Source: a virus
Lineage: Duplodnaviria > Caudoviricetes
Reading direction: 5' to 3' (one strand)
IMG/VR virus record: IMGVR_UViG_3300022602_000279
Span: 1 to 32,860 of that record
DNA length: 32,860 nucleotides
Positions 800 to 22,265 of the stretch are shown here, one piece after another. Each line of letters starts with the position of its first letter. Position 1 is the stretch's first letter. The notes beneath the pieces were generated by a model. That model did no database searches. It worked only from the letters and a program-made list of their open reading frames with translations, and had not been told where the DNA came from. Made by a program: the position numbers and the translations under genes.

Positions 800-801
800 A
801 A

Positions 802-1413
802 TTAAATTTCTTCTCTTAACATTTTACATTTTTCAAAGTGATATTGTTTCATCTGCGGCAATCCACCAATTTTATTGCAATGAGGACATTCAACTTTGGG
901 TTTTGGCTTTTTCAATTTATTACGCTCTAATTCAGTCCAGACTCTGCCAGGTTTCCCTGCATTAACACCTATCAATGATTTTGAAACTTTTTCCTTGTGC
1001 CACTCTGCTAAAGGTCTGCCTTTAAGTGGACTTGGTTTACCTAATTTTTTTAGTGTCTTTAATCTTTTAGCAATAGATTTTGAAAGTTGTTTTCTACCTT
1101 TAAGGGTATTTGAAATCTTATTACGGAGTTCTTCTGTTAAAATTCTACCAGAACACCCTTCGCCACCATTAGTCATATTTCTTAATATACCAGTACCTAA
1201 ATCTTTACGACCATATTTTTCTATTAGATTTATTTCTAATTCAAAAGCATCAATTTCACTTAAATTTTCTGCTAATATTTTAATTTTAGATTTATCTTTC
1301 GGTACTACAACCGAATGTTTATGATCCCAAGCTCGATTGCCCTTTCCTTTACCAATATAGTAAGGTGTGTCGTTGGATTTTCTTAAATAGGCATAAACGT
1401 AATACGTGTTCAT
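802..1413 (-). CDS. Free-standing GIY-YIG-type homing endonuclease with NUMOD3-like repeats and a C-terminal CPHC zinc-finger-like motif
   Basis: YYVYAY...PYYIGKG...R...E..LI...LRNMTNGGEG catalytic module; basic repeats (KISNTLKGRK, KVSKSLIG); VECPHC...HFEKC tail; visibly more AT-rich than its neighbours. Likely start is MNTYY at 1413 (track start 1434). Confidence 0.8.
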   Translation of the reverse strand: MNTYYVYAYLRKSNDTPYYIGKGKGNRAWDHKHSVVVPKDKSKIKILAENLSEIDAFELEINLIEKYGRKDLGTGILRNMTNGGEGCSGRILTEELRNKISNTLKGRKQLSKSIAKRLKTLKKLGKPSPLKGRPLAEWHKEKVSKSLIGVNAGKPGRVWTELERNKLKKPKPKVECPHCNKIGGLPQMKQYHFEKCKMLREEI

Positions 1414-1423
1414 GTTATCTATT

Positions 1424-1780
1424 TTACGATTCAAAAGGTTCGTCTTCGTCAGCTATGGCAATAATGGCTGGTTTGATTCCTGCGTTTTGGCGCATGATTG
1501 CAAGTTCGTCTGGCTCACACTCACATGGTTCGCAACCACACTCCGTGCATGCTTCTTCACCGGCCATGCGTTTCATTAGATCAAGTTTTTGTTGTAGTGG
1601 AGCTACCATTGACTTGACATTGACCTGTGCCGCACCTTCGATTCCGGCTGTGTCAGCAGGTTGGCCTGCTTCAACGTCCACGATTTCGGGACGGTTGGTG
1701 ATTTCTGTTGAACTGCTTTGATTGGCTTCTTGTGCATCTAACACATCAGCTATTTTACGAATAATTTCACTGGCTCTCAT
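1424..1780 (-). CDS. Hypothetical acidic protein with a CxxCxCxxCxC cluster, probably virion/head-associated
   Basis: Likely start MRASEII at 1780, after the upstream stop; CTECGCEPCEC motif; acidic C-terminus. Confidence 0.6.
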   Translation of the reverse strand: MRASEIIRKIADVLDAQEANQSSSTEITNRPEIVDVEAGQPADTAGIEGAAQVNVKSMVAPLQQKLDLMKRMAGEEACTECGCEPCECEPDELAIMRQNAGIKPAIIAIADEDEPFES

Positions 1781-1791
1781 AGTTGTCCTTC

Positions 1792-2112
1792 TTACCAAGC
1801 AGCTACGTTAGCTTGTGTTGAATTGTTTGCTACAGGTACGGATTGTCCACTTGGAAATACATTACCAACCTGTGTAATGGTCATTGCAGCCACTCCGGCA
1901 ATGGGTAGTAAACTCAGGGTATTGCCAATGCCCTGCATGTTGACACCAGTTCTATAACCAGCTGGAATCATTGCATTCACGTTGCTGGTTGTTGATGCTG
2001 TACCGTTGATATTGGCGTAGCAGGCCACGTTGGCCACAACTATAACTTTGGTACTCGTGATTGGTGGAGTAGTTACAGCTGAAGCAGATACGTATGTGTA
2101 AGATATTGCCAT
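1792..2112 (-). CDS. Small beta-rich putative virion structural protein
   Basis: A/T/V/N-rich composition; AAGGA RBS; late-type promoter just upstream. Confidence 0.55.
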   Translation of the reverse strand: MAISYTYVSASAVTTPPITSTKVIVVANVACYANINGTASTTSNVNAMIPAGYRTGVNMQGIGNTLSLLPIAGVAAMTITQVGNVFPSGQSVPVANNSTQANVAAW

Positions 2113-2136
2113 GTTAAATTCCTTGGATGTTACAGT

Positions 2137-2145
2137 TATTTATCG
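2137..2145 (-). promoter_or_regulatory. Late-type promoter CGATAAATA
   Basis: T4-late-like TAAATA core in the short intergenic gap before the gene starting at 2112; the identical 9-mer occurs at 5288 and 28144. Confidence 0.65.
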
Positions 2146-3390
2146 TTAGAACGTCTGCGACCAACCGTTTACGGTCTTGGTCCAAATGGCTCGTACGTTT
2201 GCCCAGGTGTTTGTGGCTGTTTTAACCCGTACATTGGCTAGATAACCCCAGGTACCGCCACCAGTTTTGACTCTAGTGCCACCAGAATTTATCATTTGGT
2301 ACACAGCAGTACCATTCGGTGCTCCCAGTCCCGAAACCGGATCCCATCCTACAGCGGACGCATAGCCCACAGACAAGGGGCTATCATTGTTACCGGTGGT
2401 CAGGTCAAAATAAGCACTGGCGTTTGAGTATAGTATTTTGTGTACCGCATTTGCTACAGGTCTGCGTCCACCATTTAACGAAATATATCTTGCAAACATA
2501 CCGGCTATGATAGGAGCCGAAGCACTGGTACCGACCACGCTGCTGATAGCACCATTGTACCATAGCACATAAGTTTGAAATGGAGCAGATACATCAGGAA
2601 CTCCACGTCCTGTCAAGGTAGACACATGACTATAGTTGTTTGAAGTAAAGTACAAATTGGCGGTTAGGCCAGTTTGCCAGGTTGGTACAGAAAACAAGGA
2701 ACTGACACCACCACCCGATGAAGGTGAAACAGATTCTATAAATCTGGCATAGGTGCCGGTATTGTAATTCAATATGGTTCCGCCCACAGCAACCACGTTG
2801 GGACTGGATGCAGGATATTGTACTGCCAGAGCGCCGCCTGAATCTGACCCCAAGTCACCTGATGCTGCACAAATGGTTATTCCCTGTGCGGAGGCATTGG
2901 CCAAGGGGGCCGCCAGGTAATCTGTAGATTCTGTACCACCCCAGCTGATGGTGATCACATCGCAACCTTCGTTGACTGCACGGTTGACCACGTTGGCAAA
3001 ACCTGAAGTAGAATTTTGCCCGGTGTAGATAACAATGTTGGCGCTGGGCACCATACCGGCTATACAATATAAGTCTAGGGTATTTTCAAGACTGGCGTTG
3101 CTGTCACTAGTGCTAAACACATTGCCAGCTCCATCTACTAATACACTGGTAATATTTTGTGCAAGTGTTAGGCCTAAGTTACCAAGACTTTTTTGTAGGT
3201 CCGCTGGTAACCAACCGCCGCCCAGACTAACAATACCAACTTTTACGTTGGCGCCGGCACTGGCTGGCATCGAGTATGCAGTTGAAATAATAGGCGGGGT
3301 GACATTGAGTCCATTGATATAGTTACTGAGACTATCTGCTGGATCAGTTGATACAACTGACGTGGTTGAAATGCATGAATTAGCTGTCAT
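2146..3390 (-). CDS. S53 (sedolisin/kumamolisin-like) serine-carboxyl peptidase, mature domain only, with a short Trp-rich C-terminal extension
   Basis: E-x-x-L-D (SLENTLD; catalytic Glu/Asp), AASGDLGS (oxyanion Asp), YPASSPNVVAVGGT, GRGVPDVS, VGTSASAP (catalytic Ser), GWDPVSGLG (Ca-site region). Confidence 0.88.
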   Translation of the reverse strand: MTANSCISTTSVVSTDPADSLSNYINGLNVTPPIISTAYSMPASAGANVKVGIVSLGGGWLPADLQKSLGNLGLTLAQNITSVLVDGAGNVFSTSDSNASLENTLDLYCIAGMVPSANIVIYTGQNSTSGFANVVNRAVNEGCDVITISWGGTESTDYLAAPLANASAQGITICAASGDLGSDSGGALAVQYPASSPNVVAVGGTILNYNTGTYARFIESVSPSSGGGVSSLFSVPTWQTGLTANLYFTSNNYSHVSTLTGRGVPDVSAPFQTYVLWYNGAISSVVGTSASAPIIAGMFARYISLNGGRRPVANAVHKILYSNASAYFDLTTGNNDSPLSVGYASAVGWDPVSGLGAPNGTAVYQMINSGGTRVKTGGGTWGYLANVRVKTATNTWANVRAIWTKTVNGWSQTF

Positions 3391-3393
3391 GTG

Positions 3394-5265
3394 TTAAAAC
3401 GTCTGATACCAAATATCGCCGACGTTGCCCTGTGATCCAGTTGGTGCTACATTCGATACCCAGGTATAGCGAGCCACATTGGACACCATGGCAATATTGC
3501 CATTGGAATAAACAGGGCCAACGGATACAACATTGCCTGCGGTGAGATTTGAGTTAACTGCCAGATTGCCTTGTGTGGTAACGGTGCCATTGGCATTGCC
3601 CATCAATATAACATTGGCACTCAGGCCCATGTACAGGGTTGTGGTCAAGTTAAAGATGTTGGCAATTGGTGCTGTGGTTCTTAGGTGTCCACCAGAAGTA
3701 TATAAATTACCAGTGGCCGTGATATCTTTGGCCGAGGCAATGTTGCCCGATGCTGTGATAGTATTAGCTGATATATTTGCTGTGACAATGTTACCTGCAC
3801 TGATGTTGCCTGTAGCAGTCAGCAGATATGTGGCAACATTGGTGTTGCTGTAGGTTGGTGGAGCATAAGGCACACCATTGGCCCAGAATACACCTGACGT
3901 GGTTATAACGTTGCCAATGTTGGCCGTACCTGGAGTACGAATATTTCCAATAGTTGCTATGGTATAAACGGTAGCAGCATTAGCAACCAGTGTACCGGCT
4001 TCTACCAGTGGTGACTGCACACTGATATTGGAAATAAAGAAACCCAAGGTTGTGGTATTTCCCACAATAAAAATATTACTACCAGTGTATTGCCCTGTAT
4101 AGGTTGGCAAGTAGTTGGCCACATTGCTGTCACCGTAGGTTCCTGCTGATTTCTGGAATGTTAGATTGGCATAGGTACCCAGTGATGTAACATTGCTTTG
4201 TACTGCGGCAGTGACTAGATTGGCCGCTGTGATATTGGCACTTAAAGAATTAATTTGTTGTGACTGAATAGTAGCATTGGACTGCCAGGAGACCGTCACG
4301 TTGTTTATGGATACATTGGCTGAAGCCACATTGGCTGCCATGGCAGAATTCAAGGCATTGACGTAACCAACAACCGCTGAGTTGGCGGTAACTATGGCCG
4401 CATTGGAGCCAATCACATTGGCATTAATGGTGTTGATTTCTGATTGTAGTGTTGCAACATTGGCAGTCAGGGTTATTACATTGCCCTGCAGGGTTGTAAT
4501 GCTAGCATCATGCGAACTCAGAGTATCAAATACCGAGGTTAGACTATTGTTTACCACACCAAGATTGGCATCTAATACCTGTATGTGAACATTGGCAGCG
4601 GTAATGTTGGCGTTGATTGGTGCATAGTTTGAGTTGACCGAACTCAATCCAGATTGTAAATTTGCAATGACCACATTTGCCGCCGTCACGTTGGCATTGA
4701 CAGTATTGAGAATGCCGGCCTGTGTAGAAGCATTGGCGTACAGGTCATTGATAGAGCTGTTGAATCCAACAACATTGGTATTTAAATTGTTGATTGAACT
4801 GGCCAATGAACCGGTATTGGCCTGTAGGTTAGCCACGCTGGCACCGATATTGCCAATATTGGAAGTGATTTCACCAAGGTCTATTTCTATTTCACCAACG
4901 TTGCTTGTTAAGTAAGCAATATTACCCACAATGACTCCAACATTGGTTGACAAGGCCGCTACATTAGCATTCACCAATGCAACATTAGAACTACCAATAT
5001 TGGCGGCTATACCAGCAACATACACATTGCTGGCATTTGTTGCAGCAAGGACATTGGCATAACTAACTGCACCTATTACATCATTGACATAAAGTATTAC
5101 GTTACCAGTTCGCCCGGCAACAGAAGCAACCGGAGAATTAACTGTAACATTCCCGTTGGCAATATTGGCAAAATTTGAATCAATTATTTGGAATGCAGTA
5201 CGTAATGGGTTACCGGTTCCATCGTTAGCGGTGTTGCCTACAAAGACATTAGCGAAAATACTCAT
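3394..5265 (-). CDS. Tail fibre/baseplate appendage with T4 gp9/gp10-like N-terminus and long Asn/Ala/Val coiled coil
   Basis: N-terminal VGNTANDGTGNPLRTAFQIIDSNF (gp9/gp10-type motif); VASVAGRTGNV motif; heptad region; C-terminal APTGSQGNVGDIWYQ motif typical of fibre ends. Confidence 0.8.
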   Translation of the reverse strand: MSIFANVFVGNTANDGTGNPLRTAFQIIDSNFANIANGNVTVNSPVASVAGRTGNVILYVNDVIGAVSYANVLAATNASNVYVAGIAANIGSSNVALVNANVAALSTNVGVIVGNIAYLTSNVGEIEIDLGEITSNIGNIGASVANLQANTGSLASSINNLNTNVVGFNSSINDLYANASTQAGILNTVNANVTAANVVIANLQSGLSSVNSNYAPINANITAANVHIQVLDANLGVVNNSLTSVFDTLSSHDASITTLQGNVITLTANVATLQSEINTINANVIGSNAAIVTANSAVVGYVNALNSAMAANVASANVSINNVTVSWQSNATIQSQQINSLSANITAANLVTAAVQSNVTSLGTYANLTFQKSAGTYGDSNVANYLPTYTGQYTGSNIFIVGNTTTLGFFISNISVQSPLVEAGTLVANAATVYTIATIGNIRTPGTANIGNVITTSGVFWANGVPYAPPTYSNTNVATYLLTATGNISAGNIVTANISANTITASGNIASAKDITATGNLYTSGGHLRTTAPIANIFNLTTTLYMGLSANVILMGNANGTVTTQGNLAVNSNLTAGNVVSVGPVYSNGNIAMVSNVARYTWVSNVAPTGSQGNVGDIWYQTF

Positions 5266-5287
5266 TATTTTTTACCCTGTTATAGAG

Positions 5288-5296
5288 TATTTATCG
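5288..5296 (-). promoter_or_regulatory. Late-type promoter CGATAAATA for the fibre-protease operon
   Basis: Lies immediately after the uvsE terminator and 22 nt before the fibre ATG. Confidence 0.7.
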
Positions 5297-5302
5297 CAAA
5301 AC

Positions 5303-5329
5303 AAAAAAGCCCGCATCAGCGAGCTTTTT
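5303..5329 (-). terminator. Rho-independent terminator after uvsE
   Basis: Minus strand AAAAAGCTCGC-TGAT-GCGGGCTTTTTT: GC stem with one G-U pair, 4-nt loop, U-tract. Confidence 0.85.
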
Positions 5330-5346
5330 CGATCAGTATGTGTTAT

Positions 5347-6372
5347 TTATAAACCCAGCTGTTTGGCTCGGTTATATACCTGTTCGCTGGCTAGATTTTT
5401 GCCTTTGGATTCGCATTGTATGTCAAACTGGTCCCAAAATGTCAAAGCCCAATCGGTAACTGCACTATTCCAGTAGAAATCTGAATGTGCCCGCAATTTT
5501 TGTTTTTTGTGGCCTTCTACCAAAAGCGCCGCATAGTCGGGGGCAACAAGTGCGTCATGTCCCACAAGTATGTCTTCCCTGCTGATACTGTAATGCATAG
5601 CAGGGCGAACACCGCGCCAGCTATCAACAACTCGCCGAACACGTTCGTCGTTGGGCTGGAGATAGGCTCCTTCGCGTATCCAATAATGATGAACATCGAG
5701 CACAACAGGAACAAGATCAGAAATGGTAAGACAATCATTCAACCCCCAGGAGTTTTCTTCGTTTTCGATAGTGATACAGTTACGGGCTTCAGGACTCAGT
5801 TTCTTGTAGGCCTCTCTGATACCTTCGGGACCACGCTTGCCCGAGATGTGGACATTGATTTTAAAGTCTTGAAATGATCGACCATAGCCCATCCAGCGAG
5901 CCATGTCGGCATGATATTCAAATTCGTCAATGCTACGTTCAACTATGCCAGGATTCTCCGATGCCAACACACAGAACTGTCCGGGATGGAAACTGAGTCT
6001 AACATCAAGTCTACGTGCCGTTTCACCTATGGGTGCAAAGATACGTTCAAGATGATCCTGTATCTCTCTGCGTTGCCACCAGGCCTGCCAATCCTTCTCG
6101 GTATAGCCCTGTAGCATTTCTGAGCCCAAGCGCACCATACGACGTTCTGGCGGCAAGGTAGCCACACGCTCAATCATTTTCACAGCAGCCGCGGCATTGT
6201 GATTCATTATGTCCCACTGACGCTGTTCGGCTTCGGCTGGATGCTCACGCAACCAACGCATGGTAGTTGAACGCCCGTTAAGGTCCCGATCTTTTGCATT
6301 GACTTTCATGCCGCCACATTCGGACGGATCATTGAGCCATTTGCAACAGAAGCCAATACGTTTAGTGTACAA
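5347..6372 (-). CDS. uvsE: UV damage endonuclease (UvsE/UVDE)
   Basis: RIGFCC N-terminus, R-L-G-S, RLSFHPGQF, INVH, IENEE, LDVHH, HYS, RAHSD, ESKGK motifs of the UVDE TIM barrel. Likely TTG start at 6372 behind GAGGA (track start 6444). Confidence 0.92.
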   Translation of the reverse strand: MYTKRIGFCCKWLNDPSECGGMKVNAKDRDLNGRSTTMRWLREHPAEAEQRQWDIMNHNAAAAVKMIERVATLPPERRMVRLGSEMLQGYTEKDWQAWWQRREIQDHLERIFAPIGETARRLDVRLSFHPGQFCVLASENPGIVERSIDEFEYHADMARWMGYGRSFQDFKINVHISGKRGPEGIREAYKKLSPEARNCITIENEENSWGLNDCLTISDLVPVVLDVHHYWIREGAYLQPNDERVRRVVDSWRGVRPAMHYSISREDILVGHDALVAPDYAALLVEGHKKQKLRAHSDFYWNSAVTDWALTFWDQFDIQCESKGKNLASEQVYNRAKQLGL

Positions 6373-6640
6373 TATATTCCTCAAATTCGTAGTATACACT
6401 ACCCCGAGCTTCTGCGTCAACAATAGCCTGTTCGAATTCTTCATTTATACTGCGTATGTCTATGGCTATGTCCAGGGCTCGAAGTATAGCTTCACCGGCC
6501 TCGTGATGTTCGGTGTCCAATAGGCCTTCGCCAATTTCAACCAATTGTTCTAACACAATATCTAGTTCGTCAGCGGTGAGCTCTTTGATAGCAACTTTGT
6601 TATCAAGTATATCTTGAACTAGTAATTCTGGATCTCTCAT
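6362..6640 (-). CDS. Hypothetical highly acidic protein
   Basis: Coupled start/stop overlaps with both neighbours; E/D-rich helical sequence. Confidence 0.6.
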   Translation of the reverse strand: MRDPELLVQDILDNKVAIKELTADELDIVLEQLVEIGEGLLDTEHHEAGEAILRALDIAIDIRSINEEFEQAIVDAEARGSVYYEFEEYIVH

Positions 6641-6834
6641 TTTAGCTCCATGATTTGTTTGATTGCTTCTGTGGCTTCGGGGAATCCAGCACGGGCCTTT
6701 TGTTCCAGGGCAGATTCCATGTAGTGTTCTTGAAGCACATGTAAACTATTTACAAATTCAGGAATATCTCGTTTACTAATAGTATAACGAAAGTTAAACC
6801 GATTGTCGGGACGGGGAGTATCTTCGGGCCACAT
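6637..6834 (-). CDS. Hypothetical protein
   Basis: Tight packing in the operon; ATGA overlap with the next gene. Confidence 0.55.
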   Translation of the reverse strand: MWPEDTPRPDNRFNFRYTISKRDIPEFVNSLHVLQEHYMESALEQKARAGFPEATEAIKQIMELK

Positions 6835-6837
6835 AAT

Positions 6838-7050
6838 TTATCCTTGCACAAAAACTTCTACGGTCTGAATGTGACCTACAAATTCTTTGTAGGTCATCAA
6901 ACTATACGGGCTGTGATTGTAAAACTCCTGTGGCATTTTAATTCTAACACCATCTTTAAAACACTCATGAAAGGTTTTGATGTTGTCTTCTTCCACATCG
7001 TCCCAAGGACAGTATTCATAACCTAAATAATTGTATAAGCTGTTTTGCAT
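6838..7050 (-). CDS. Hypothetical protein
   Basis: GGAG RBS; tight packing. Confidence 0.55.
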   Translation of the reverse strand: MQNSLYNYLGYEYCPWDDVEEDNIKTFHECFKDGVRIKMPQEFYNHSPYSLMTYKEFVGHIQTVEVFVQG

Positions 7051-7052
7051 GA

Positions 7053-7295
7053 TTACTCCAAAAAATAAACAGTAAAAGCACGAGCATTTCTTTTGAGCGT
7101 GTCACGTTGTTGGCTATGTGGACCACGGTAACGGATACGAACATTGTACCCCAACTGCTTGAGACCCGTTCGGACTTTTTCTACCCTGGCTATAGGCACC
7201 ATACGCAGGTCGGGATATTCTCGAACAGTTTTGTACAGATCAGGTAACCCGGCTATAAAAGATTCAGTTATCAAATCACTGGGTTGATAATACAT
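7053..7295 (-). CDS. Hypothetical basic protein
   Basis: Tight packing; RIRYRGP motif. Confidence 0.55.
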   Translation of the reverse strand: MYYQPSDLITESFIAGLPDLYKTVREYPDLRMVPIARVEKVRTGLKQLGYNVRIRYRGPHSQQRDTLKRNARAFTVYFLE

Positions 7296-7296
7296 C

Positions 7297-7737
7297 TTAG
7301 TTGGCCTCGTAAGCGGCTTTGAGTTTTTTCATAAACTCGGCACGAATCTTGGCCGCTTCTCTTGGCGACATAGGTGCGTCCCAGTCAAACTTGTCTGTGG
7401 TGGGTTTTTTGATAGTGGCCTTGCGAGCGGAAAAAGTAGCCATTACCGTACGTGGCTTTTTGACTGCCTTGGGTTTGGCAAACGGATTTTCGTCTCGGAT
7501 TAAACTGGTAAGAAGGCCTGTGGCTTCGGGTGTATTATGATTGGGATATGAAATGGCCAAGTTAGTGAGCACATACTTAGCAGCATCATTCTTGGTCATT
7601 GGGTTAGGCAAGATTGCCATTGAGATGTCTGTATCACCCAGTTTGGCCAACTGCTGGGCACGAGCCATGTCGTTAGCAGTACGAAATTTTAACGCACCTG
7701 CTACACGGCTAAAACCTGCAAATCTTACTGTACTCAT
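7297..7737 (-). CDS. Hypothetical basic (K/A-rich) early protein, possibly nucleic-acid binding
   Basis: Strong TAAGGAG RBS; directly downstream of a near-consensus sigma70 promoter. Confidence 0.65.
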   Translation of the reverse strand: MSTVRFAGFSRVAGALKFRTANDMARAQQLAKLGDTDISMAILPNPMTKNDAAKYVLTNLAISYPNHNTPEATGLLTSLIRDENPFAKPKAVKKPRTVMATFSARKATIKKPTTDKFDWDAPMSPREAAKIRAEFMKKLKAAYEAN

Positions 7738-7766
7738 ACTAGCTCCTTATTAGTTACTATACAAGT

Positions 7767-7795
7767 ATTATACTATTTTGGCAATTTTGGGTCAA
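7767..7795 (-). promoter_or_regulatory. sigma70-type (early) promoter TTGACC-N17-TATAAT
   Basis: -35 at 7795-7790, -10 at 7772-7767, exact 17-bp spacer. Confidence 0.85.
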
Positions 7796-7941
7796 CCGTT
7801 GTGATCACGGCCTGGGTGCTTGGAACGGCGCTTGTAGCGGTCCTTGCGTTCAACCCGCTGGGGCTTGAACGGGGTGTCGCTTAAAAACAACACCCTGTGA
7901 GCACGGGTTTTTTGTGGGATTTTTACAACAATCTTATTCAT
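7792..7941 (-). CDS. 49-aa basic protein resembling the core of alternative ribosome-rescue factor ArfA (not in ORF track)
   Basis: MNKIVVKIPQKTRAHRVLFLSDTPFKPQRVERKDRYKRRSKHPGRDHNG*; fills the gap between two promoters; motif D-x-P-F...QRVE-x-K...Y-x-R-x-x-K-H. Confidence 0.65.
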   Translation of the reverse strand: MNKIVVKIPQKTRAHRVLFLSDTPFKPQRVERKDRYKRRSKHPGRDHNG

Positions 7942-7950
7942 AGTATAGTA

Positions 7951-7979
7951 ATTATACTATTTTGAGATTTTATGGTCTA
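7951..7979 (-). promoter_or_regulatory. sigma70-type promoter TAGACC-N17-TATAAT
   Basis: -10 at 7956-7951, -35 at 7979-7974; shares CAAAATAGTATAAT with the promoter at 7767. Confidence 0.75.
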
Positions 7980-8195
7980 GTGCAGGGTAGAATTACCAAT
8001 TTGCCCAGGATCTGTGATCCCAAACATCTTGAATATTTTTTGTATTTTTTTAGAGGTTTTAAAAGGAACAACCTCGGGTACAATTATCGACTTTAATTCA
8101 CCGTCTGGGCCAACAACAAATCCGTAATCTTCCTCGCCTAAATCGCCTTCGTAAATGCCATCTTCAATTGCCAACTCTTCGGATAACTTGCTCAT
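7977..8195 (-). CDS. Hypothetical protein
   Basis: GGAG RBS; acidic N-terminus, DYGFVVGPDGELKSI motif. Confidence 0.6.
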   Translation of the reverse strand: MSKLSEELAIEDGIYEGDLGEEDYGFVVGPDGELKSIIVPEVVPFKTSKKIQKIFKMFGITDPGQIGNSTLH

Positions 8196-8799
8196 TTGAT
8201 TGCTCCAGTCGTTTATTATATTTAATCGCTTGTCGTTTTAATTGTGTTAGTACTTTTGGGTCTTTACGAAAATGTCGCTGATAAAGTTGATAAGTCTTTG
8301 TCTGTTCTAATTTTGTTTGATATACTGCCATCTCACTTGAAATGTTAAATGCGTGAGCAAGTATTTCATCTTCGCAACCTAGATAATCCTGCATGGTTTC
8401 ACTATAACGCAGAGTAGTTCGTGCTCGATATCCTCGACCGTGACGGTAACCTCGTTGGCGACAATAATACTGATGCAGATACTCGTGAGTAACTACATCG
8501 GCCACATGGAATCCTATGCTATCCCAATCAGTTTGGTCAATGTAGCAAACCTGTTTACGACAAGGAAAAGTCAAGGTAATATAAATGCAAGGTTCGTCTT
8601 GGCTATCTTCGTGTGGGCGATATTCACCTTTGATCCAAAAGTTACCCGGTTCTACACGACTGTCTCGCTCGGTATTAAACACCAACTTGGAATCACGAAA
8701 CTGCATACGAATCAAATGTGTTAGACCCTCGGGCGTGTACCGCTTACCGCTGTGTCTCTCAGCGATGGTACGTAGACGCTCAAGGGCTTTGAAGAACAT
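8164..8799 (-). CDS. Putative HEXXH zinc metallopeptidase-like protein
   Basis: VVTHEYLHQY with downstream YLGCEDEILAHA (candidate third-ligand Glu). Confidence 0.6.
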   Translation of the reverse strand: MFFKALERLRTIAERHSGKRYTPEGLTHLIRMQFRDSKLVFNTERDSRVEPGNFWIKGEYRPHEDSQDEPCIYITLTFPCRKQVCYIDQTDWDSIGFHVADVVTHEYLHQYYCRQRGYRHGRGYRARTTLRYSETMQDYLGCEDEILAHAFNISSEMAVYQTKLEQTKTYQLYQRHFRKDPKVLTQLKRQAIKYNKRLEQSNEQVIRRVGN

Positions 8800-9486
8800 T
8801 TAGATATGTTGTGATTCAGAATAAAAGTAGTGTCCACCAACACGGGCAACATAATGCTTTTGTCGGGCCCATACCGGATGTATTGCCGTGGCATGGAAAT
8901 ATAGTGCATCACTGTATTTGGCTTGCCAGTCTGCATAGTCGCCCTGTAGCAATGCTGTGGCTACACGTTGACTTTCTTCCCAGCGTTCATCTGAATCTTT
9001 GGGCTTGTGTACAAACATGCACTTCCATGAGAACTGACATACTGCGACATTTTCAACTACCTTGGTAGTTTGTTTTTGATGTTCGGGTCGACCAAACCAT
9101 CCAGCCTGTACCATCTTGACGGTGGTAACTTCTCTGCTGCGTACGGTCTGTGTGCGTTGATTCACTACCGAGCAGATTGAATTGCCAAAGCGTCCATCAC
9201 GAACGCGATTGATGGTTACCATGGCCACTGCCACTTTGCCTTCCTCAGGCTCATTACCTGCTTCATAGTAGATATTGTGTGCAAGGCAATCAATATCCTT
9301 GCTGGTGATGTTGATGTCTACAATGGGACTCATTATAGCACCTACCAATGTGTCCAAGCGATCTTGTGCTTGTGTTTTGACGGTGTTAAAAAAACTTTGT
9401 TGCTGTACTGCCACTTCTTCTGCATGACCGGGTGCCATTACGGTCAGGGCTAATATTGCTACGATTGTTTGAATAATCGTTCTCAT
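8800..9486 (-). CDS. SleB-family (Hydrolase_2) cell wall hydrolase with N-terminal signal peptide
   Basis: CLAHNIYYEAGNE...GKVAVAMVTINRV...ICSVV...CQFSW...ALYFHA...GGHYFY; hydrophobic N-terminus ending GHA. Confidence 0.88.
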   Translation of the reverse strand: MRTIIQTIVAILALTVMAPGHAEEVAVQQQSFFNTVKTQAQDRLDTLVGAIMSPIVDINITSKDIDCLAHNIYYEAGNEPEEGKVAVAMVTINRVRDGRFGNSICSVVNQRTQTVRSREVTTVKMVQAGWFGRPEHQKQTTKVVENVAVCQFSWKCMFVHKPKDSDERWEESQRVATALLQGDYADWQAKYSDALYFHATAIHPVWARQKHYVARVGGHYFYSESQHI

Positions 9487-9554
9487 AAAGTCCTCCTTAA
9501 GTTGTACGTTCTTTTTAAGGAACGTTAGATATTTAAGTACATATCTATCCAGTA

Positions 9555-9583
9555 ATAATACTACTTTACCAATTGAAAGTCAA
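9555..9583 (-). promoter_or_regulatory. sigma70-type promoter TTGACT-N17-TATTAT, with a late-like TTAAATA at 9536-9530
   Basis: 17-bp spacer; one mismatch in the -10 box. Confidence 0.6.
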
Positions 9584-9623
9584 GGTAAGTAGCGTTTCTG
9601 AGCAAAAAACTGCCGTTAAAACC

Positions 9624-11573
9624 CTACTTATTCTGATTTATATACGTACTTAATGGGATACCTTGAGCCTGTGCCTGGCCCAAAAGCAGTGAAGGATTAG
9701 GATCGTTATTGACCGTAACTCCTTTGATTGAGAGCTTTTGAGTGTTTATATTTTCTGCTATGACCGAGCTGACAATGTCGCCACCAGCATCATTGGTTAT
9801 TAGATTGGCAAAGAAATAATAACTTCCTGCAGGACTGGATTGGTCTGATGCAGCCGATCCAATGCGTTGAGCAAATCCTTTTAGTCCGCCTGAATAGCCA
9901 GCATCAAATATTATACCGCCCTTGGGAATATTTGAAACTTCAGTTGCCAAATGATTTAAAGAAAGATAATAAGCATTGAGTCCGTTATAAAAAGCAACGT
10001 TGGTTGGCTGATTATTTAACGCAGTATTCACCGATGTGACAGCCGATTGTACTGGAGCAAGAGTAGCGGTACTGGTGTTTGCCGATATGTCTGTATAAAT
10101 TTGATTGACAAAAGTGACCAAGGATTGATCCAAGGCACGCAATGAACTTACCAAGTTAGTGGTATCTACGTTGCTGTAGTTTGAATTGCAAATGGTCAAT
10201 AATCCAGTGTGCGGGATTCCGGCTACCGACCCCAAATAGTCTACTAAAGTTGGTGTATTGAAAGGACCCGACCCTGTACCCAAGGTACTTAATAAATTGT
10301 TGGCAATGCTGTCGGGCAATACTACAGTTGATGCGGTGGTGATTGTATGTGATGTCTGAGGTATATCCAACGAGTTCAACAAGGTGGCCATGTCTGCCCA
10401 GGATTTGTAGTAGCCTTGACCAATTTTACTACTTAGATATGTGCCCAGGCTGGTAAGATTGGCAATGTTGGCCGCGGCCAACTGCTTATAGGTTGATGCA
10501 TCTACAATCTTTTCCAAGTTTAAATAATCTGCCAAAGAAGTGATGCCTGTGCCGGTGGTCTGAACATTTGTTGCTACAATCATTGATTCAAGGTCAGTGC
10601 CCTGTACAGTTGAATAGATATTGACTACTACTGCTGGACTATTTCCAGTCACGGTAGTGGTGGTCACTACATTGGCCACTGTGGGCAATTCAATTTGTCC
10701 AACGGGACTGGATATCTTAAATGAGCTGGCCGCCTGGGTGACCGTGGTTTTTGTAGAGCCAACTTGGCTTAGATTGTTTATGTTTAGGCCAACATTGGTC
10801 AGTTTGGTAGACAGCTGACCGTAGGAACCAAGTCCTTGATTCAGTAGGTTTTGACCAAACACATAAGGATCGGCCATGGTTGATATGTTGTTGATATCAT
10901 ACATGGTTCCCCACTTGGCAATTACTCCGGCTACCAATTCGCCGGTGGTGTTCAAACCTTTGGTCACAAGATCCAGTGGTCCGGTATAGCCAATACCACT
11001 TTGTCCGTAGGTTTTGCCCTTGAGCAGATACACACTGGCCACGGTATCAAACACCGAAGTTACATAGCCCGATGCGGTAGTATATACATTGGCAAATCCC
11101 TGCATGCCGTGAGCAAATGGCAACTCAGCTTGAGCCTGTAGGGTTCCAGTCCATCGAGCTGAACTGGTGATAGGAGGATAATTGAAACCTACCAGTTCAA
11201 CGTTGGCTGGGTCGTGTGGAATAGGAGCATATACTGGTTGTAGATATGTTCCGTAGGAAGCAATGGTAGTTGTACAGGTTGGGCCGATGTTGGCCGGGTA
11301 GTAGTCAATCAGCCATTGTGCGCCTGAAGTAACGCCTTGCCCCAGTGTGGCCACAAGATTGGTTACATCAAGGTTTCCTGCGTTGCTTAGATTTCCACCA
11401 AAGTTAAACAGGACATTTGTTGCCAGTTCTGTTGTGGTCCAGATATTGGCCACCAGAGTCATGGGAGCATGATTTTGGAACGTTGATATTTCTGCCAGTA
11501 GATTGGCCGAAGTAGTTAGGCCTTGCCCATTGAGAATAGTATTAGTGGCAACTAACTGAAGTGCTGTGGCCAT
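9624..11573 (-). CDS. Large putative virion structural (baseplate/tail-associated) protein
   Basis: Follows the PAAR gene; T/N/S/A/G-rich with low charge; no enzyme motif recognised. Confidence 0.55.
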   Translation of the reverse strand: MATALQLVATNTILNGQGLTTSANLLAEISTFQNHAPMTLVANIWTTTELATNVLFNFGGNLSNAGNLDVTNLVATLGQGVTSGAQWLIDYYPANIGPTCTTTIASYGTYLQPVYAPIPHDPANVELVGFNYPPITSSARWTGTLQAQAELPFAHGMQGFANVYTTASGYVTSVFDTVASVYLLKGKTYGQSGIGYTGPLDLVTKGLNTTGELVAGVIAKWGTMYDINNISTMADPYVFGQNLLNQGLGSYGQLSTKLTNVGLNINNLSQVGSTKTTVTQAASSFKISSPVGQIELPTVANVVTTTTVTGNSPAVVVNIYSTVQGTDLESMIVATNVQTTGTGITSLADYLNLEKIVDASTYKQLAAANIANLTSLGTYLSSKIGQGYYKSWADMATLLNSLDIPQTSHTITTASTVVLPDSIANNLLSTLGTGSGPFNTPTLVDYLGSVAGIPHTGLLTICNSNYSNVDTTNLVSSLRALDQSLVTFVNQIYTDISANTSTATLAPVQSAVTSVNTALNNQPTNVAFYNGLNAYYLSLNHLATEVSNIPKGGIIFDAGYSGGLKGFAQRIGSAASDQSSPAGSYYFFANLITNDAGGDIVSSVIAENINTQKLSIKGVTVNNDPNPSLLLGQAQAQGIPLSTYINQNK

Positions 11574-11576
11574 GGA

Positions 11577-11906
11577 TCAAGGCCCTACAAATACGTTGGG
11601 AATACCTTCGGTAACAAAATGTTGGCCACAGGTACAAACAGCACCCAGCATGGCCACTGGTCTTCCTTCAACCAATATGTTGGGAATACCCTTTGCGATA
11701 GTAGCAGCAGCACACTTGGGATTATACCCAGGTGCTTTTGGATTGTAAGGATTGCCATGAATGGTAACCAATGAGCCAACGGTGGCCACTGGCAGGCCTG
11801 CAGGGCCAACTCTTACTGTTGGTGCACCTATTGCTGTTACTCCCGGTGGCGGTGGAAATCCATTGATTGATTCAGGAATTCCAACGCAGGCTATTGGTAC
11901 TGGCAT
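11577..11906 (-). CDS. PAAR-like spike tip protein (T4 gp5.4-like)
   Basis: Three PAAR-type repeats (PIACVG, PVATVG, PVAMLG), His/Cys metal ligands (IHG, CTCGQH), terminal G-x-P-N-V-F-V-G. Confidence 0.85.
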   Translation of the reverse strand: MPVPIACVGIPESINGFPPPPGVTAIGAPTVRVGPAGLPVATVGSLVTIHGNPYNPKAPGYNPKCAAATIAKGIPNILVEGRPVAMLGAVCTCGQHFVTEGIPNVFVGP

Positions 11907-11907
11907 T

Positions 11908-12216
11908 TTAAGTGATTATTCCGCTTTTGGCTGGCTGAATACCTGTGGTAGTACGGATATAGTGATTTTCAATATCTGTAATTACGGGACCATGCATGAT
12001 AACATGCTCAGATTTCAGCGTTACATTAGTATTTATATCCGCAGAAATTAGGCTCTGCATGAGCCCCAGGCCCTGTGGGCTGGGAATAACCGTACATGGA
12101 CGATTTACTACATAGCCTTCGGAATTTTGTCCCACAATTTTGGCAACAATTTCGTCGCCAGTTACCATCTTGAAACACACGATATCGCCTTCGGCGTATC
12201 CTTTATTGATTAACAT
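11908..12216 (-). CDS. Hypothetical protein, possible Sm-like fold
   Basis: GDIVCFKMVTGDEIVAKI...V-x-R-P pattern seen in T4-like phage Sm-like proteins; C-terminal Y...TTGI...GIIT. Confidence 0.5.
   Translation of the reverse strand: MLINKGYAEGDIVCFKMVTGDEIVAKIVGQNSEGYVVNRPCTVIPSPQGLGLMQSLISADINTNVTLKSEHVIMHGPVITDIENHYIRTTTGIQPAKSGIIT
12030..12037 (-). promoter_or_regulatory. Internal TATAAATA late promoter candidate for the PAAR and 9624 genes
   Basis: Exact T4 late consensus inside the preceding gene, about 125 nt upstream of the PAAR ATG where structural genes begin. Confidence 0.45.
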
Positions 12217-12219
12217 ACG

Positions 12220-12465
12220 TTATCCTTTTAATTGATTGAAAAACTCTTCTTTTTGTCGTTGCAGGCCTTGAAATCCGCCTTCTACCAACAGCTTGCCGTC
12301 TTGATAAATCTGTGGCACCGTACGGTGTCCTTCACCAACAATAAACTCACGTGCTTCAGAGTCTAGGTCAATTCGAATTTCTTCAAACGCAATGCCTTTT
12401 AGTTTTAGCAGGCCTTTGGCTTTGTCGCAGAATGGGCAGTTGGCTTTAGAATATATAGTAATCAT
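12220..12465 (-). CDS. grx: Glutaredoxin
   Basis: CPFC active site, RTVPQI, GG motif; adjacent to RNR genes. Confidence 0.93.
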   Translation of the reverse strand: MITIYSKANCPFCDKAKGLLKLKGIAFEEIRIDLDSEAREFIVGEGHRTVPQIYQDGKLLVEGGFQGLQRQKEEFFNQLKG

Positions 12466-12493
12466 TATGAGCTCCTTTGTTTGAAAATTTGTT

Positions 12494-13240
12494 CTATAGT
12501 ATATTTAATTTTTTTACTTTTTCGTAAACTATTTCTGCCCAAAGTTCATGTACTTTATAGGTAGGATGTACACCATCGGGCTGTAGTCCTCCGGGGGTCT
12601 GTTGGGCCAGTTCAAAAATACCGTTGCGATCTGAATCCAAAAACACCCACTGATCAAAATCAATTTGATCAATCAAGGAATGTAGATTGTGGAATTGTGC
12701 AAGACCAAAATCAAAGTCACCCACCTGTGGCTGAGTTCCCCAGTAGTTCATGTAGCTACTCATCACATAAGGAATGCCCTGTTGTTTTAGGTATGCCTGC
12801 AGTTGTAAAATATTCAGCAGGGTCTCTGCGGCCATGCTGTTGTTGGTGCTTGACCTGTACAAGGGATCAAATATGTTTTTTAAAAATGGGTTGCGTTGCC
12901 AACTGCCCAGTAGTCCGCCACTGAACACATAGGTCAATCCGGTCTTGGTAGGATCGCAGTAGTCATAACGAGACAATGCGTTGACCAGGGTTGGGTCAAA
13001 GGTGTCTATCAGTAGATCTTTACGTGTGAGCCCACTCCACATTACTGCCACAAGATCTACGTCTTGTATTCCATGTAGTATGGGCTTGTTGGAAATATAA
13101 GTGTTGCCGGCACCTGAGTAACCGTGATTGGTCAAGTCAGCTGTCAGTAAGTCGGCCAAGTAGCGTGGCCACCCGCCCTGTGGATCACCCTCAAGCTGAT
13201 GCCCGTGGGTAAAACTGCATCCAATGGTATAGAGTTTCAT
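12494..13240 (-). CDS. SGNH-hydrolase-like protein
   Basis: IGCSFT (block I), GAGN (block II), DGVHP (block V DxxH). Confidence 0.7.
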   Translation of the reverse strand: MKLYTIGCSFTHGHQLEGDPQGGWPRYLADLLTADLTNHGYSGAGNTYISNKPILHGIQDVDLVAVMWSGLTRKDLLIDTFDPTLVNALSRYDYCDPTKTGLTYVFSGGLLGSWQRNPFLKNIFDPLYRSSTNNSMAAETLLNILQLQAYLKQQGIPYVMSSYMNYWGTQPQVGDFDFGLAQFHNLHSLIDQIDFDQWVFLDSDRNGIFELAQQTPGGLQPDGVHPTYKVHELWAEIVYEKVKKLNIL

Positions 13241-13245
13241 TGCTG

Positions 13246-14373
13246 TTACAGGCTTAGACCCTTGAAGGTATCTCCGTCAACGTCCTGTTTGGTACCACCG
13301 ATCACATAGGTAGTGATTTCTGTTTCTTGTGGTGCTACCTGTACTTCCGATCCGGCAATCCACTTCATGGTCCATGGTAAGGGATTAGATCCTGGCTTGA
13401 TGCCACAATCCAAGCCTACCGCGGTCATGCGCTTGCAGGTCAACCAGTCAACATACTGAGCCAACAAGACCTGGTTAAGACCAATCATGGATCCATCTTT
13501 GAACAAGTACTTGGCCCAGGTTTTTTCCTGTTCGGCAGCTGATAGGAACATGGCTGTGCATTCCGCCCGAGTTTCTTCACGGATCTTCACATAATCCGCA
13601 TCGTCCTGTGGTAGCAATTTTAATAGGGTTTGCGTGGACCCCAAGTGAACGTTTTCATCTCGAGCAATCAGTTTAATAATCTTAGCATTGCCTTCCATCT
13701 TTTTCAACTCAGCAAATGCCCAGGAACAAGCAAAGCTGACATAGAAGCGTATGCCTTCTAATGCGTTAACACTATTCAAGCACAACCATAATTTTTTCTT
13801 GAGTTCGTACATGTCAACTGTAATTTTTTTGCCATTGACGGTGTGTGTGCCAAGACCCAACATGCGATACCAACCCGAAGCTTCGATCAGTTCATCGTAA
13901 TAACGACTGATATCAGTAGCGCAGGCCACGATCTCATCCAAGTCCAAGAGTTCATCAAATACTTCGCTTGGATTAGCATATACATTACGAATAATGTGTG
14001 TGTAACTGCGGCTGTGAATAGTTTCGTTGAATGCCCAGGTTTCAATCCAGGTTTCTAATTCAGGGATGGTGGCGAGAGGCAAGAAGGCTAAATTAGGAGA
14101 GCGCCCTTGCACTGAATCCAGCAGTATCTGACGTTTTAGATTACTGGTAAAGATGTGTTTTTCAAAGTCAGTTAGTTCTTTGAAATCTTTAGCATCACGC
14201 ATGACATCTACTTCTTCTGGACGCCAAAAGAATCCCAACTGCTTGTCAGTCAGTTTGTCAAACTGACGATACTTCAGTATGTCGTAGCGTTGTACTGCTG
14301 GTGTACCGTTGGTATCTAAAAATGCCAGGGATTTGGTGTGATCTGTTTTGTTATTGATATTAAAAACTGACAT
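13246..14373 (-). CDS. nrdB: Ribonucleotide reductase class Ia beta subunit
   Basis: FFWRPEEVD, LLDSVQ, ETIHSRSY (radical Tyr), EGIRFYVSF, RDENVH, APQETE. Confidence 0.97.
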   Translation of the reverse strand: MSVFNINNKTDHTKSLAFLDTNGTPAVQRYDILKYRQFDKLTDKQLGFFWRPEEVDVMRDAKDFKELTDFEKHIFTSNLKRQILLDSVQGRSPNLAFLPLATIPELETWIETWAFNETIHSRSYTHIIRNVYANPSEVFDELLDLDEIVACATDISRYYDELIEASGWYRMLGLGTHTVNGKKITVDMYELKKKLWLCLNSVNALEGIRFYVSFACSWAFAELKKMEGNAKIIKLIARDENVHLGSTQTLLKLLPQDDADYVKIREETRAECTAMFLSAAEQEKTWAKYLFKDGSMIGLNQVLLAQYVDWLTCKRMTAVGLDCGIKPGSNPLPWTMKWIAGSEVQVAPQETEITTYVIGGTKQDVDGDTFKGLSL

Positions 14374-14382
14374 GGTGTCTCC

Positions 14383-16680
14383 TTAAATTACACAACTATC
14401 GCAATCGGCTGCATCTTCGACAGGATCCAACTCTTCACTCTTTGATAATTTTTCAACGTCAATTTCACCTTGACCATCATTGGTATTGAAATAGTATAAC
14501 TGCTTGCCGCCGTACTTGTAAAACTGGATAATGTCCTTGAGCATTTCACTCATGGGAATCTTTTCATCTGCATAAAAATGTGGATTGTATGAAGTGTTTA
14601 CGCTGATGCCTTGATCAATGTACTTTTGTAAAACTGCACACAGTCGCAGATATCCTTCTGGGCTTTTTTGATCCCATAGCAATTCATAACGGTTCTTTAG
14701 ACGACGATACTCAGGTACTACCTGTTTAAGTACACCGTGTTTGCTTTGCTTGACTGATACATAACTGCGAGGGGGCTCAATGCCGTTGGTAGCGTTTGAG
14801 ATTTGTGCTGATGTTTCAGCTGGCATTAGAGCCATTAGGGTAGCATTACGCTGACCAGTGGCTTTGGTTTGCTCGCGAAGTTCTGCCCAGGGCATACGTT
14901 CTTGGTGAGGAACTATCTCATCAATTTCTGCCTTGCGTGTGTCAATAGGCAGGATACCTTGAGACGATTTTAGATCTTGCCAACGACCACAGGCGCCTTG
15001 TTCAACGGCGAGATCAGCTGAGGCTTTTAATAAGTAGTAACTCCAGGCTTCGGCATACTCGTCAACAATGGCTACCGCCTCTGGACTGCTGTATGTTACA
15101 TCATTCTTGGCCAAAAAATAAGCAAAGTTAATAATACCTACTCCCAAGGGACGGAACTCCTCGGTGGCCAGTTCCGCCGCCCTAACAGGATAATTCTGAT
15201 ACGACAATAATGCATCTAAACCACGTACTGCCAGTTCGCACGGTTTCTGGAAGTCATGTGGGCTTTTTACATTGCCCCAATTAATTGCGCTCAAAGTACA
15301 GAGTGCAATTCTACCATCCTCGTCGTTGACATCCTTTAGTGGAACTGTTGGTAAATCAATTTCACAACAAAGGTTTGACATCTTTACGGGTGCTACACTT
15401 TCAATAAATGGACTATGTGTATTGGCATGGTCCACGTTTTGCAAATAGATACGTCCTGTATCTTTGCGTTCCTGCATAAAACGGGTAAACAGGTCTGCGG
15501 CTTTGAATGTTTTCTTACGAATCTTTGTACTGCGTTCAGCCTTCTCATACAGCTCTTTGAAACGATCTTGATCGTTAAAGAAAGCGTCATACATTTCTGG
15601 CACATCATGGGGACTAAAACAGGTAATATCGCCACCTTGAATTAGTCTTTCGTACATTAATTTGTTGAATTGAACCCCATAATCCATGTGACGTACACGA
15701 TTATCCTCTGTGCCCTTGTTGTTCTTCAACACAATAAGGTCTTCAATTTCCAAATGCCAGATAGGATAGTAAAGTGTTGCGGCACCATTGCGTACACCGC
15801 CCTGACTGCAACTACGTGTAGCCGACTGAAATAGTTTGTAAAATGGTACTACACCTGTGTGGTATGCGTCACCTGAACGGATGGGCGAACCCAATGCTCT
15901 AATTCGCCCGGCACCGATTCCAATACCAGCTTTCTGACTAACATACTTGACAATGCTACTACTAGTAGCATTAATGCTATCCAAAGAATCATCTGCTTCA
16001 ATAAGTACGCACGATGAGAATTGCTTCTGAGGAGTGCGTACACCGGCCATAACAGGAGTAGGAAGACTAATGTCTCCAAGACTGATTGCATCATAATAAT
16101 CCTTCACCCAGCGTAGACGTGTGTCCGTAGGGTACGATTGAAATAAGGTGGCCGCTATCAGCATATAGGCCATTTGTGGAGTTTCAAATATTTCGCCTGT
16201 AACACGATTTTGAACCAGGTACTTGCCGCGCCATTGTTCCATGGCCACGTAGGTAAAGTTCTCATCACGTGTGTGGTCAATTTTACTATCAAGTGTATTC
16301 CATTCATCTTCAGAATACGCTTCTAATAGGCCGCGGTCATAAAATCCCGATGCTACATTTTTCTTTACCAATTCCAGGAGAGTGCAAGGTTGGTAATCAT
16401 TGTAGACTTGCTTGCGTAAGTGATAGTTGATCAGACGCCCAGCTACATATTGATAATTGGGAGTTTCTTCTGAAATTAAATCAGCAGCACTTTTGATCAA
16501 GGTTTCTTGAATATCAGCTGTTTTGATACCGTTGTAAAATTGTATGTGGCTTTTGATTTCTACTTCACTGGCACTAACACCTGTGATACCTTGTGTTGCC
16601 CAGAATACTACTTTGTGTAACTTTTCTAAATCGAGGTCTTCTGTGTGACCTTCTCTCTTTGTAACTTTAATTGATGTCAT
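14383..16680 (-). CDS. nrdA: Ribonucleotide reductase class Ia alpha subunit with N-terminal ATP cone
   Basis: VTKREG ATP cone, QFSSC, SNLCCEI, PAETSA, QLYY, C-terminal CDSC. Confidence 0.98.
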   Translation of the reverse strand: MTSIKVTKREGHTEDLDLEKLHKVVFWATQGITGVSASEVEIKSHIQFYNGIKTADIQETLIKSAADLISEETPNYQYVAGRLINYHLRKQVYNDYQPCTLLELVKKNVASGFYDRGLLEAYSEDEWNTLDSKIDHTRDENFTYVAMEQWRGKYLVQNRVTGEIFETPQMAYMLIAATLFQSYPTDTRLRWVKDYYDAISLGDISLPTPVMAGVRTPQKQFSSCVLIEADDSLDSINATSSSIVKYVSQKAGIGIGAGRIRALGSPIRSGDAYHTGVVPFYKLFQSATRSCSQGGVRNGAATLYYPIWHLEIEDLIVLKNNKGTEDNRVRHMDYGVQFNKLMYERLIQGGDITCFSPHDVPEMYDAFFNDQDRFKELYEKAERSTKIRKKTFKAADLFTRFMQERKDTGRIYLQNVDHANTHSPFIESVAPVKMSNLCCEIDLPTVPLKDVNDEDGRIALCTLSAINWGNVKSPHDFQKPCELAVRGLDALLSYQNYPVRAAELATEEFRPLGVGIINFAYFLAKNDVTYSSPEAVAIVDEYAEAWSYYLLKASADLAVEQGACGRWQDLKSSQGILPIDTRKAEIDEIVPHQERMPWAELREQTKATGQRNATLMALMPAETSAQISNATNGIEPPRSYVSVKQSKHGVLKQVVPEYRRLKNRYELLWDQKSPEGYLRLCAVLQKYIDQGISVNTSYNPHFYADEKIPMSEMLKDIIQFYKYGGKQLYYFNTNDGQGEIDVEKLSKSEELDPVEDAADCDSCVI

Positions 16681-21948: not shown

Positions 21949-22265
21949 ATTCGAAAACTTTCTCCGCACCCACAGCGGTCCTTTTCTTGAGGATTGCGAA
22001 ATTCAAAACCTTCATTGAGTCCTTGGCGTACATAATCTACTTCCATGCCATCAAGGAAAGGCAGGTCTTTTTGATCTACCAGGATTCCAAAGCCTGGTTG
22101 TGGGAAAGCCACTGACCCGGGCCAGACATCATCTACATATTCCAATATGTAGGCAAGACCTGAACAGCCGGTGGTTCGTATGCCCACGCGAATGCCAATG
22201 CCTGAACCGCGCTTTTCCAAATTGGATTTGATTTTTTTACTTGCTGTGCTTGTTACGGTAATCAT
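21945..22265 (-). CDS. iscA: A-type Fe-S cluster carrier IscA
   Basis: TTGCSGLAY, DYVRQGLNEGFEFRNP, CGCGESF. Confidence 0.95.
   Translation of the reverse strand: MITVTSTASKKIKSNLEKRGSGIGIRVGIRTTGCSGLAYILEYVDDVWPGSVAFPQPGFGILVDQKDLPFLDGMEVDYVRQGLNEGFEFRNPQEKDRCGCGESFRI

Follow-up and report, generated by a model that had tools for sequence, protein, structure and literature searches.

The window analysed here is the whole stretch of 32,860 nt of the virus record IMGVR_UViG_3300022602_000279. The record is a fragment with a completeness estimate of 9%, which would place the full genome size near 360 kb. It encodes UvdE, a cell-wall hydrolase, NrdAB, DnaB, a primase, IscU and IscA. NrdA has 58-61% identity to its best matches among cultured phages (DLP_6 and GAP32-like jumbo phages) and IscU 80-83% identity to beta- and gammaproteobacterial IscU; the iscU and iscA-like Fe-S assembly genes are adjacent (21945-22614, minus strand). 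In a sequence-only reading of the window, a hidden 49-aa ORF resembling the ribosome-rescue factor ArfA had been proposed. This ORF was recovered by minus-strand translation of 7941-7792, which ends in the stop codon TGA, and the ORF list of the window contains no competing long ORF in other frames over 7792-7941. The features of the locus are:

7951..7979, minus strand, sigma70-type promoter-like site, TAGACC-N17-TATAAT, 10/12 matches, with the same layout in 40/60 homologous genes
7792..7941, minus strand, 49-aa basic ORF (net +11), a probable remote ArfA homologue of a phage-specific subfamily without the Gly-Lys-Gly (GKG) residues
7913..7930, no strand, second palindrome match with one mismatch, inside the ORF; may be chance
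7867..7903, minus strand, codons Arg13-Phe25, conserved RxHxVLFxxxxPF, aligning to the helix and RF2-contact patch of ArfA (Asn14-Phe25), with Val17 at ArfA Ala18
7875..7892, no strand, palindrome TGTTG-N8-CAACA with one mismatch, located within the ORF and probably serving the downstream promoter as operator
7816..7866, minus strand, codons Lys26-His42, covering the basic Y-x-R-x-x-K-H tail and a strand predicted to pair with RF2; ArfA is three residues longer here
7767..7795, minus strand, next promoter-like site, TTGACC-N17-TATAAT, 11/12 matches; its -35 box overlaps the ORF stop codon and it precedes a 146-aa gene (7737-7297)

All candidates of the first homologue search (9/9) were homologues. 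Viral contigs yielded 10 loci at first and then 124 confirmed loci among 141 candidate stretches. From these 124, 80 were kept, and 83 loci were reduced to 60 distinct proteins or genes, which were used for the counts. A profile search of 1.84 billion protein representatives gave 177 clusters at E ≤ 0.001. Without length restriction, 149 of the 150 representatives listed are ≤ 99 aa; the remaining one (463 aa) is a repeat protein. Pairwise comparison of the genes of 59 proteins gave 14,270, 12,389 and 28,868 differences at codon positions 1, 2 and 3, respectively. Given the 124 viral loci, the 177 protein clusters and this third-position bias (about two-fold over first and second positions), the 49-aa ORF is a real gene under purifying selection. 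In prokaryote genomes, searched with one narrow pattern, one of 42 candidate stretches was confirmed; with just this locus, the close family looks viral. The 9.5-kb contig with this match (VGVV01000021.1) was binned in an Ignavibacteria MAG and may be a mis-binned phage contig; the promoter layout of the match is phage-like. Among cultured phages, no credible match to the 49-aa protein was found (the five matches obtained have E ≥ 2 and lie in primase or hypothetical genes), nor any credible match to the family members P0153 and P0085. The GKG-less subfamily is carried by uncultured jumbo phages.

The promoter of the 49-aa gene consists of the -35 box TAGACC at 7979, a 17-nt spacer and the -10 box TATAAT ending at 7951. 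As the sequence-only reading had claimed, 9 nt without an SD separate the -10 box from the ATG. A lone promoter match is weak, as 48 were counted compared to 33 ± 6 in shuffles. Among the 60 distinct homologous genes, a -10-like box ends ≤ 12 nt before the ATG in 40 and at exactly 9 nt in 29. An SD is present in 8/60, SD and promoter layout occur together in 0/60, and neither is found in 12/60. This arrangement suggests a near-leaderless transcript, which would be made early by the host polymerase. The neighbouring 146-aa Lys/Ala-rich gene (7297-7737, minus strand) lies downstream of the strongest promoter match in 1-16000, occurs also near 23/60 homologous loci and has no match in Pfam, PHROG or the ESM Atlas.

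The sequence TGTTG-N8-CAACA has seven matches in the window, while 2.5 are expected. In the flanks of the homologous loci, 25 exact copies with the 8-nt spacer were counted, compared to 0-6 for other spacers, and 14 promoter matches lie ≤ 120 nt from such copies. Allowing one mismatch, the palindrome is present inside 40/60 homologous ORFs, over the VLF..D/NT codons. It occurs in all 28 ORFs whose stop overlaps the TTGAC promoter, and that promoter is found in 0/20 palindrome-free genes. The palindrome probably serves as operator of the next gene and as a transcription-factor site in this phage clade. The residues VLF, ILF or VLW are kept in 20/20 genes without palindrome; hence, the palindrome is not the cause of the protein conservation. 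An apparent mid-gene RNA hairpin (mean z -2.0; -1.7 compared to -0.3 for the 3' half) is not considered a regulatory RNA, since the DNA palindrome accounts for it.

Searches with the 49-aa protein alone gave no match in Pfam or PHROGs and no ArfA in the PDB, where three unrelated matches were obtained at E 1.4-5.1. Against a bacterial ArfA profile, the protein scored 4.5 bits, about the 99th percentile of shuffles. In the ESM Atlas, an ArfA-named cluster ranked no higher than 23, with a score of 0.90 and the name ArfA on 23% of its members; it was taken as a lead. A 10-sequence profile matched ArfA exclusively in the PDB (E 0.4-0.7). Profile A3 (59 sequences, close relatives only) had no PDB match, which was counted against a rescue function. 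Profile A4 comprised the 49-aa query and 120 of the 150 representatives listed, while 30 of < 35 or > 60 aa were left out. With A4, six of 177,635 PDB sequences were matched at E ≤ 10, all of them ArfA (best E 6.2e-4), and this was counted in favour of rescue. Alignment of A4 to 10 bacterial ArfAs using hhalign gave a probability of 94.4% and a pairwise E of 8.7e-8 over 40 columns. The profile-profile probabilities with ArfA were 23%, 79%, 77% (A3) and 94.4% (A4); the ArfA signal rises with profile diversity. Conversely, with a profile built exclusively from bacterial ArfAs, ≥ 10 bits were reached by 35/121 members, 0/121 reversed and 0/2,420 shuffled sequences. A4 outscored all 1,000 shuffles for 6/10 bacterial and 3/7 phage ArfAs, whereas for 4/10 bacterial and 4/7 phage ArfAs some shuffles matched its score, which was counted against.

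Among the 150 representatives listed, Pfam ArfA (PF03889) was touched at E ≤ 0.1 by 10 with none above the cut-off (best score 20.3 bits, cut-off 25.5 bits). DUF7230 (PF23876), which has no assigned function, was touched by 57 with three above its 27-bit cut-off; the likeness concerns the C-terminal half, mostly profile positions ~15-36 of 42, and the 49-aa protein itself has no match to DUF7230 and stays below that cut-off. NCBIfam matched 0/121 members at E ≤ 0.01. PHROGs 2701 and 6310 were matched by 27/121 and 25/121 members, respectively; the 49-aa protein matches neither these nor PHROG 18092, all three of which have no assigned function. The annotated ArfA of Pseudoalteromonas phage J2-1 has the ArfA N-terminus, no GKG and 29.3 bits on A4, and exceeds both Pfam cut-offs (ArfA 41.3 bits, DUF7230 28.6). 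It thus forms a bridge between ArfA, DUF7230 and the 121-member family. The ArfA resemblance is significant for the family and not for the 49-aa protein alone. The likeness to ArfA proposed by eye therefore holds at the profile level (A4 search of the PDB, bacterial ArfA profile and hhalign). By these comparisons, the 49-aa protein would be a remote ArfA homologue and not a PF03889 member, since it falls below the Pfam cut-off and has neither the KGKGS loop, nor Ala18, nor the nonstop control of ArfA. An AlphaFold2 model gave an extended peptide (pLDDT 83, pTM 0.32); the Foldseek search with it found no fold match and is uninformative.

For ArfA, Leu19, Leu24 and Phe25 are described to bind RF2 Trp319 while the basic tail fills the mRNA tunnel; Ala18 packs on Ile11, and ArfA truncated at Asn47 is still functional (PMC5378476). 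Leu19 and Phe25 are held to explain the RF2 specificity (PMC5378476, PMC8012679). The variant Ala18Thr binds and recruits RF2 and does not activate it, so that release fails (PMC5378476, PMC8012679, PMC12646239), and none of the KGKGS residues is individually essential (PMC6299226). The segment of E. coli ArfA given in the sequence-only reading agrees with the real sequence. In the profile register, Phe25 corresponds to ArfA Phe25, Leu18 to Leu19, Val17 to Ala18, Tyr36 to Tyr39, Arg38 to Arg41 and Lys41-His42 to Lys44-His45, so that the by-eye identity of QRVE with QRVE is shifted by one. The F...Y-x-R-x-x-K-H motif, whose loss would have spoken against the proposal, is kept: among the 121 members, Leu18 is found in 116, Phe25 in 108 (plus 12 Tyr), Tyr36 in 105 (plus 11 Phe), Arg38 in 121, Lys41 in 120 and His42 in 109. 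Accordingly, the protein has the Y-x-R-x-x-K-H basic C-terminal tail of ArfA. Within the RF2-contact patch, Leu19 and Phe25 are retained; the Leu24 position is Thr in the 49-aa protein and Leu in 44/121 members, which was counted against rescue.

The spacer between F and Y is 10 residues in 97 members, 11 in 7, 12 in 1 and 15 in 7 (unmatched in 9), compared to 13 in 10/10 bacterial ArfAs, which indicates a deletion of Gly35-Lys36-Gly37 in the family. The KGKGS loop is present in 0/121 members. The loop had correctly been described as missing, but three residues are lost and not the whole KGKGS. Similarly, the peptide is indeed a C-terminally short form, but does not stop just after KH, since seven residues follow, which is also the family median. 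Position 17, equivalent to Ala18, is Val in the 49-aa protein, and Val in 55, Ala in 27 and Ile in 19 of the 121 members; a beta-branched residue occupies it in 74/121 members and in 60/60 close genes, with or without palindrome. The N-terminal HxxGxIxDN minidomain (Gly9, Ile11, Asn14), which in ArfA becomes ordered to open RF2, is replaced by a nearly invariant RxH, and this was counted against rescue. Thus, neither Ala18 nor this minidomain is found in the protein. The HxxG part is also missing from an annotated Pseudomonas ArfA. Judged from the residues, the docking parts of ArfA appear retained and the activation part rebuilt.

Compared to ArfA (YhdL, PF03889; PDB 5U4I, 5MDV, 5H5U, 5MDW, 7OJ0, 5MGP), the family shares the size of the active form, the helix-region Leu19 and Phe25, the strand region, the tail, a net positive charge (+11, ArfA +8) and a likely beta-/gammaproteobacterial host range. 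It differs in the absent Gly35-Lys36-Gly37, a one-residue insertion (Pro24), RxH in place of HxxGxIxDN, mostly Val/Ile at Ala18, the lack of a 3' hairpin, of a hydrophobic tail and of an -AA end, scores below the Pfam cut-off and a viral, hardly cellular occurrence.

Bacterial arfA is the product of a nonstop mRNA and is controlled by tmRNA (PMC8012679). In the 60 genes, the best 40-nt hairpin within the last 63 nt has a median of -6.1 and a minimum of -11.1 kcal/mol, compared to -18.0 for E. coli arfA. Ends in -AA were found in 0/121 members and the tails are polar, with no hydrophobic tail. A terminator filter, which recovered 2/5 bacterial controls and missed E. coli, gave weak mid-gene matches in 5/60 genes and none in the window. 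The hairpin before the stop and the unstable tail through which ArfA is controlled are therefore not found in the family, and the weak 3' hairpins and the missing hydrophobic tail support the earlier view of a layout without tmRNA-type feedback. In Photobacterium, Pseudoalteromonas and Pseudomonas, short ArfAs have the C-termini -IAA or -MAA, which resemble an ssrA-type degradation tag and are perhaps a built-in substitute for nonstop control.

A permuted betaproteobacterial-type tmRNA above the Rfam cut-off was found in 5/18 records, all examined records being carriers of the ArfA-like gene, and in 3/3 carrier records ≥ 75% complete. The signals were at first sub-threshold. The genes are:

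L115, 684-1080, permuted tmRNA gene
L116, 577-954, permuted tmRNA gene
L117, 151-582, permuted tmRNA gene
G008:C1:82614-83002, permuted tmRNA gene
G013:C1:56026-56415, permuted tmRNA gene

Two of the phage tmRNAs have the tag ANDEQFALAA, and the L117 copy has an unusually long tag of 24 residues. Phage tmRNAs as such are already known (PMC4131195). In these carrier records, the co-carried tmRNA points to a betaproteobacterial host and to an investment in ribosome rescue; a betaproteobacterium would accordingly be the host. In five records, one of them complete, searches for an RF-1 domain, PTH2 and a canonical ArfA were negative; the peptide would accordingly depend on the RF2 of the host.

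With a confidence only slightly on the positive side, we read the 49-aa peptide as an unregulated early rescue factor of the ArfA type using host RF2. The host polymerase would transcribe the gene early into a near-leaderless mRNA, and the peptide would bind host ribosomes stuck on broken messages and recruit host RF2. RF2 would then be activated and the ribosome freed; of ribosome binding, RF2 recruitment and RF2 activation, the last is predicted least securely. This reading is supported by Leu in 116/121 and Phe/Tyr in 120/121 members at the RF2-contact positions, by the activity of ArfA cut at Asn47 together with the short family tail after KH, by the dispensability of each single KGKGS residue and by the tmRNA of sister phages. 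It is further supported by the ArfA-domain gene of pelagiphage HTVC027P (gp30), for which high transcription is described in both early and late infection (PMC12753301). It is weakened by the proposal that the KH tails of ArfA and BrfA are convergent (PMC8012679), and by Val or Ile in most members at a position where A18T inactivates ArfA.

Because of these changes at the activation site and the different N-terminus, the peptide could be a blocker instead of a rescuer, which is considered rather unlikely. Like ArfA(A18T), it would bind nonstop ribosomes and RF2 without opening RF2, untagged release would be blocked, and nonstop products such as Neo of the DRT2 defence would be left to the phage tmRNA for tagging and degradation. 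The beta-branched residue in all close genes, the divergent N-terminus with the known A18T phenotype and the tmRNA of sister phages agree with such a decoy, as do the up-regulation of ArfA in DRT2 defence and its proposed role in the release of Neo there (PMC11100668). However, Ala in 27/121 members makes Val and Ala look interchangeable in this scaffold, and the steric argument may not transfer, since the Ala18 partner Ile11 is not kept. A stuck peptide would presumably also obstruct SmpB-tmRNA in the same channel, the role of ArfA in DRT2 is a proposal, and the neo mRNA may acquire stop codons (PMC12039810). That such decoys are widespread in jumbo phages and act together with phage tmRNA as a counter-defence via the choice of rescue pathway, so that stop-less messages, e.g., the DRT2 neo mRNA, are diverted from untagged release and end in degradation, is distinctly unlikely.

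It is also quite improbable that the peptide binds the A site and mRNA channel with another output, either working with RF1 or with either release factor, as ArfT does, or shielding and parking idle ribosomes without release. The tail is the best-conserved ArfA-like part (Arg38, Lys41), the RF2-activating N-terminus differs, and the 40-aa ArfT works with RF1 or RF2 (PMC6299226, PMC8012679); on the other hand, the RF2-specificity residues Leu19 and Phe25 are retained, and no hibernation factor or other non-ArfA protein was matched by A4 in the PDB at E ≤ 10. BrfA (Bacillus) and ArfT (Francisella) are small basic rescue peptides recruiting release factors, as predicted for the family, ArfT being likened by description. 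With BrfA the KH motif is common (PMC8012679), but no BrfA chain was matched by A4 in the PDB. Least probable is an unrelated basic peptide binding another nucleic acid, with a convergent or compositional likeness and a conservation partly due to the palindrome and the overlapping promoter: the sequences are short and K/R-rich, the single protein is not significant, A3 had no PDB match and the palindrome overlaps the VLF..D/NT codons in 40/60 genes, but composition-preserving shuffled and reversed controls fail, A4 matched no other basic protein among the PDB sequences at E ≤ 10, the likeness spans 40 columns with a single 3-residue gap, palindrome-free genes keep VLF, ILF or VLW, and third-position differences prevail.

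If the peptide is a rescue factor, uncultured jumbo phages, a large group, would carry a two-part kit of ArfA-type peptide and tmRNA which annotation has missed. ArfA function would then be compatible with the absence of GKG, of Ala18 and of the N-terminal minidomain known so far, and the family would offer a natural set of variants for studying RF2 activation in the absence of a stop codon. In the case of a decoy, the peptide would represent a new counter-defence at the level of translation and a starting point for peptides that inhibit ribosome rescue. Under either reading, a 49-mer is easily synthesised and tested.

Published annotations already include phage ArfA genes, e.g., Citromicrobium phage RXM gp10 (PMC8953757); the loop-less subfamily is unnamed. 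RXM gp10, HTVC027P gp30 and the J2-1 protein (ATN93434.1) are, like the family, described as small ArfA-family phage genes, J2-1 likewise without GKG. The openly accessible main-text literature yielded neither a description of the GKG-less subfamily nor a phage ArfA tested for function, and the accessible part of a jumbo-phage review on rescue genes has no occurrence of 'Arf' (PMC7824862). A tblastn search of the phage collection with E. coli ArfA gave 12 records. The seven examined are all above the Pfam ArfA cut-off and six of them have the K-G-K/R-G-S loop, whereas the 49-aa family has neither property. ArfA homologues above the Pfam cut-off are missed or mislabelled in GenBank at L096 995-1135, L094 1534-1653, L098 989-1111 and L100 998-1138. 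Those of pf16 and RsoM2USA are uncalled, with opposite-strand ORFs annotated there, that of CRP-212 is merged into the upstream CDS, and the copy of phage Arash is labelled 'ribosomal protein L2'.
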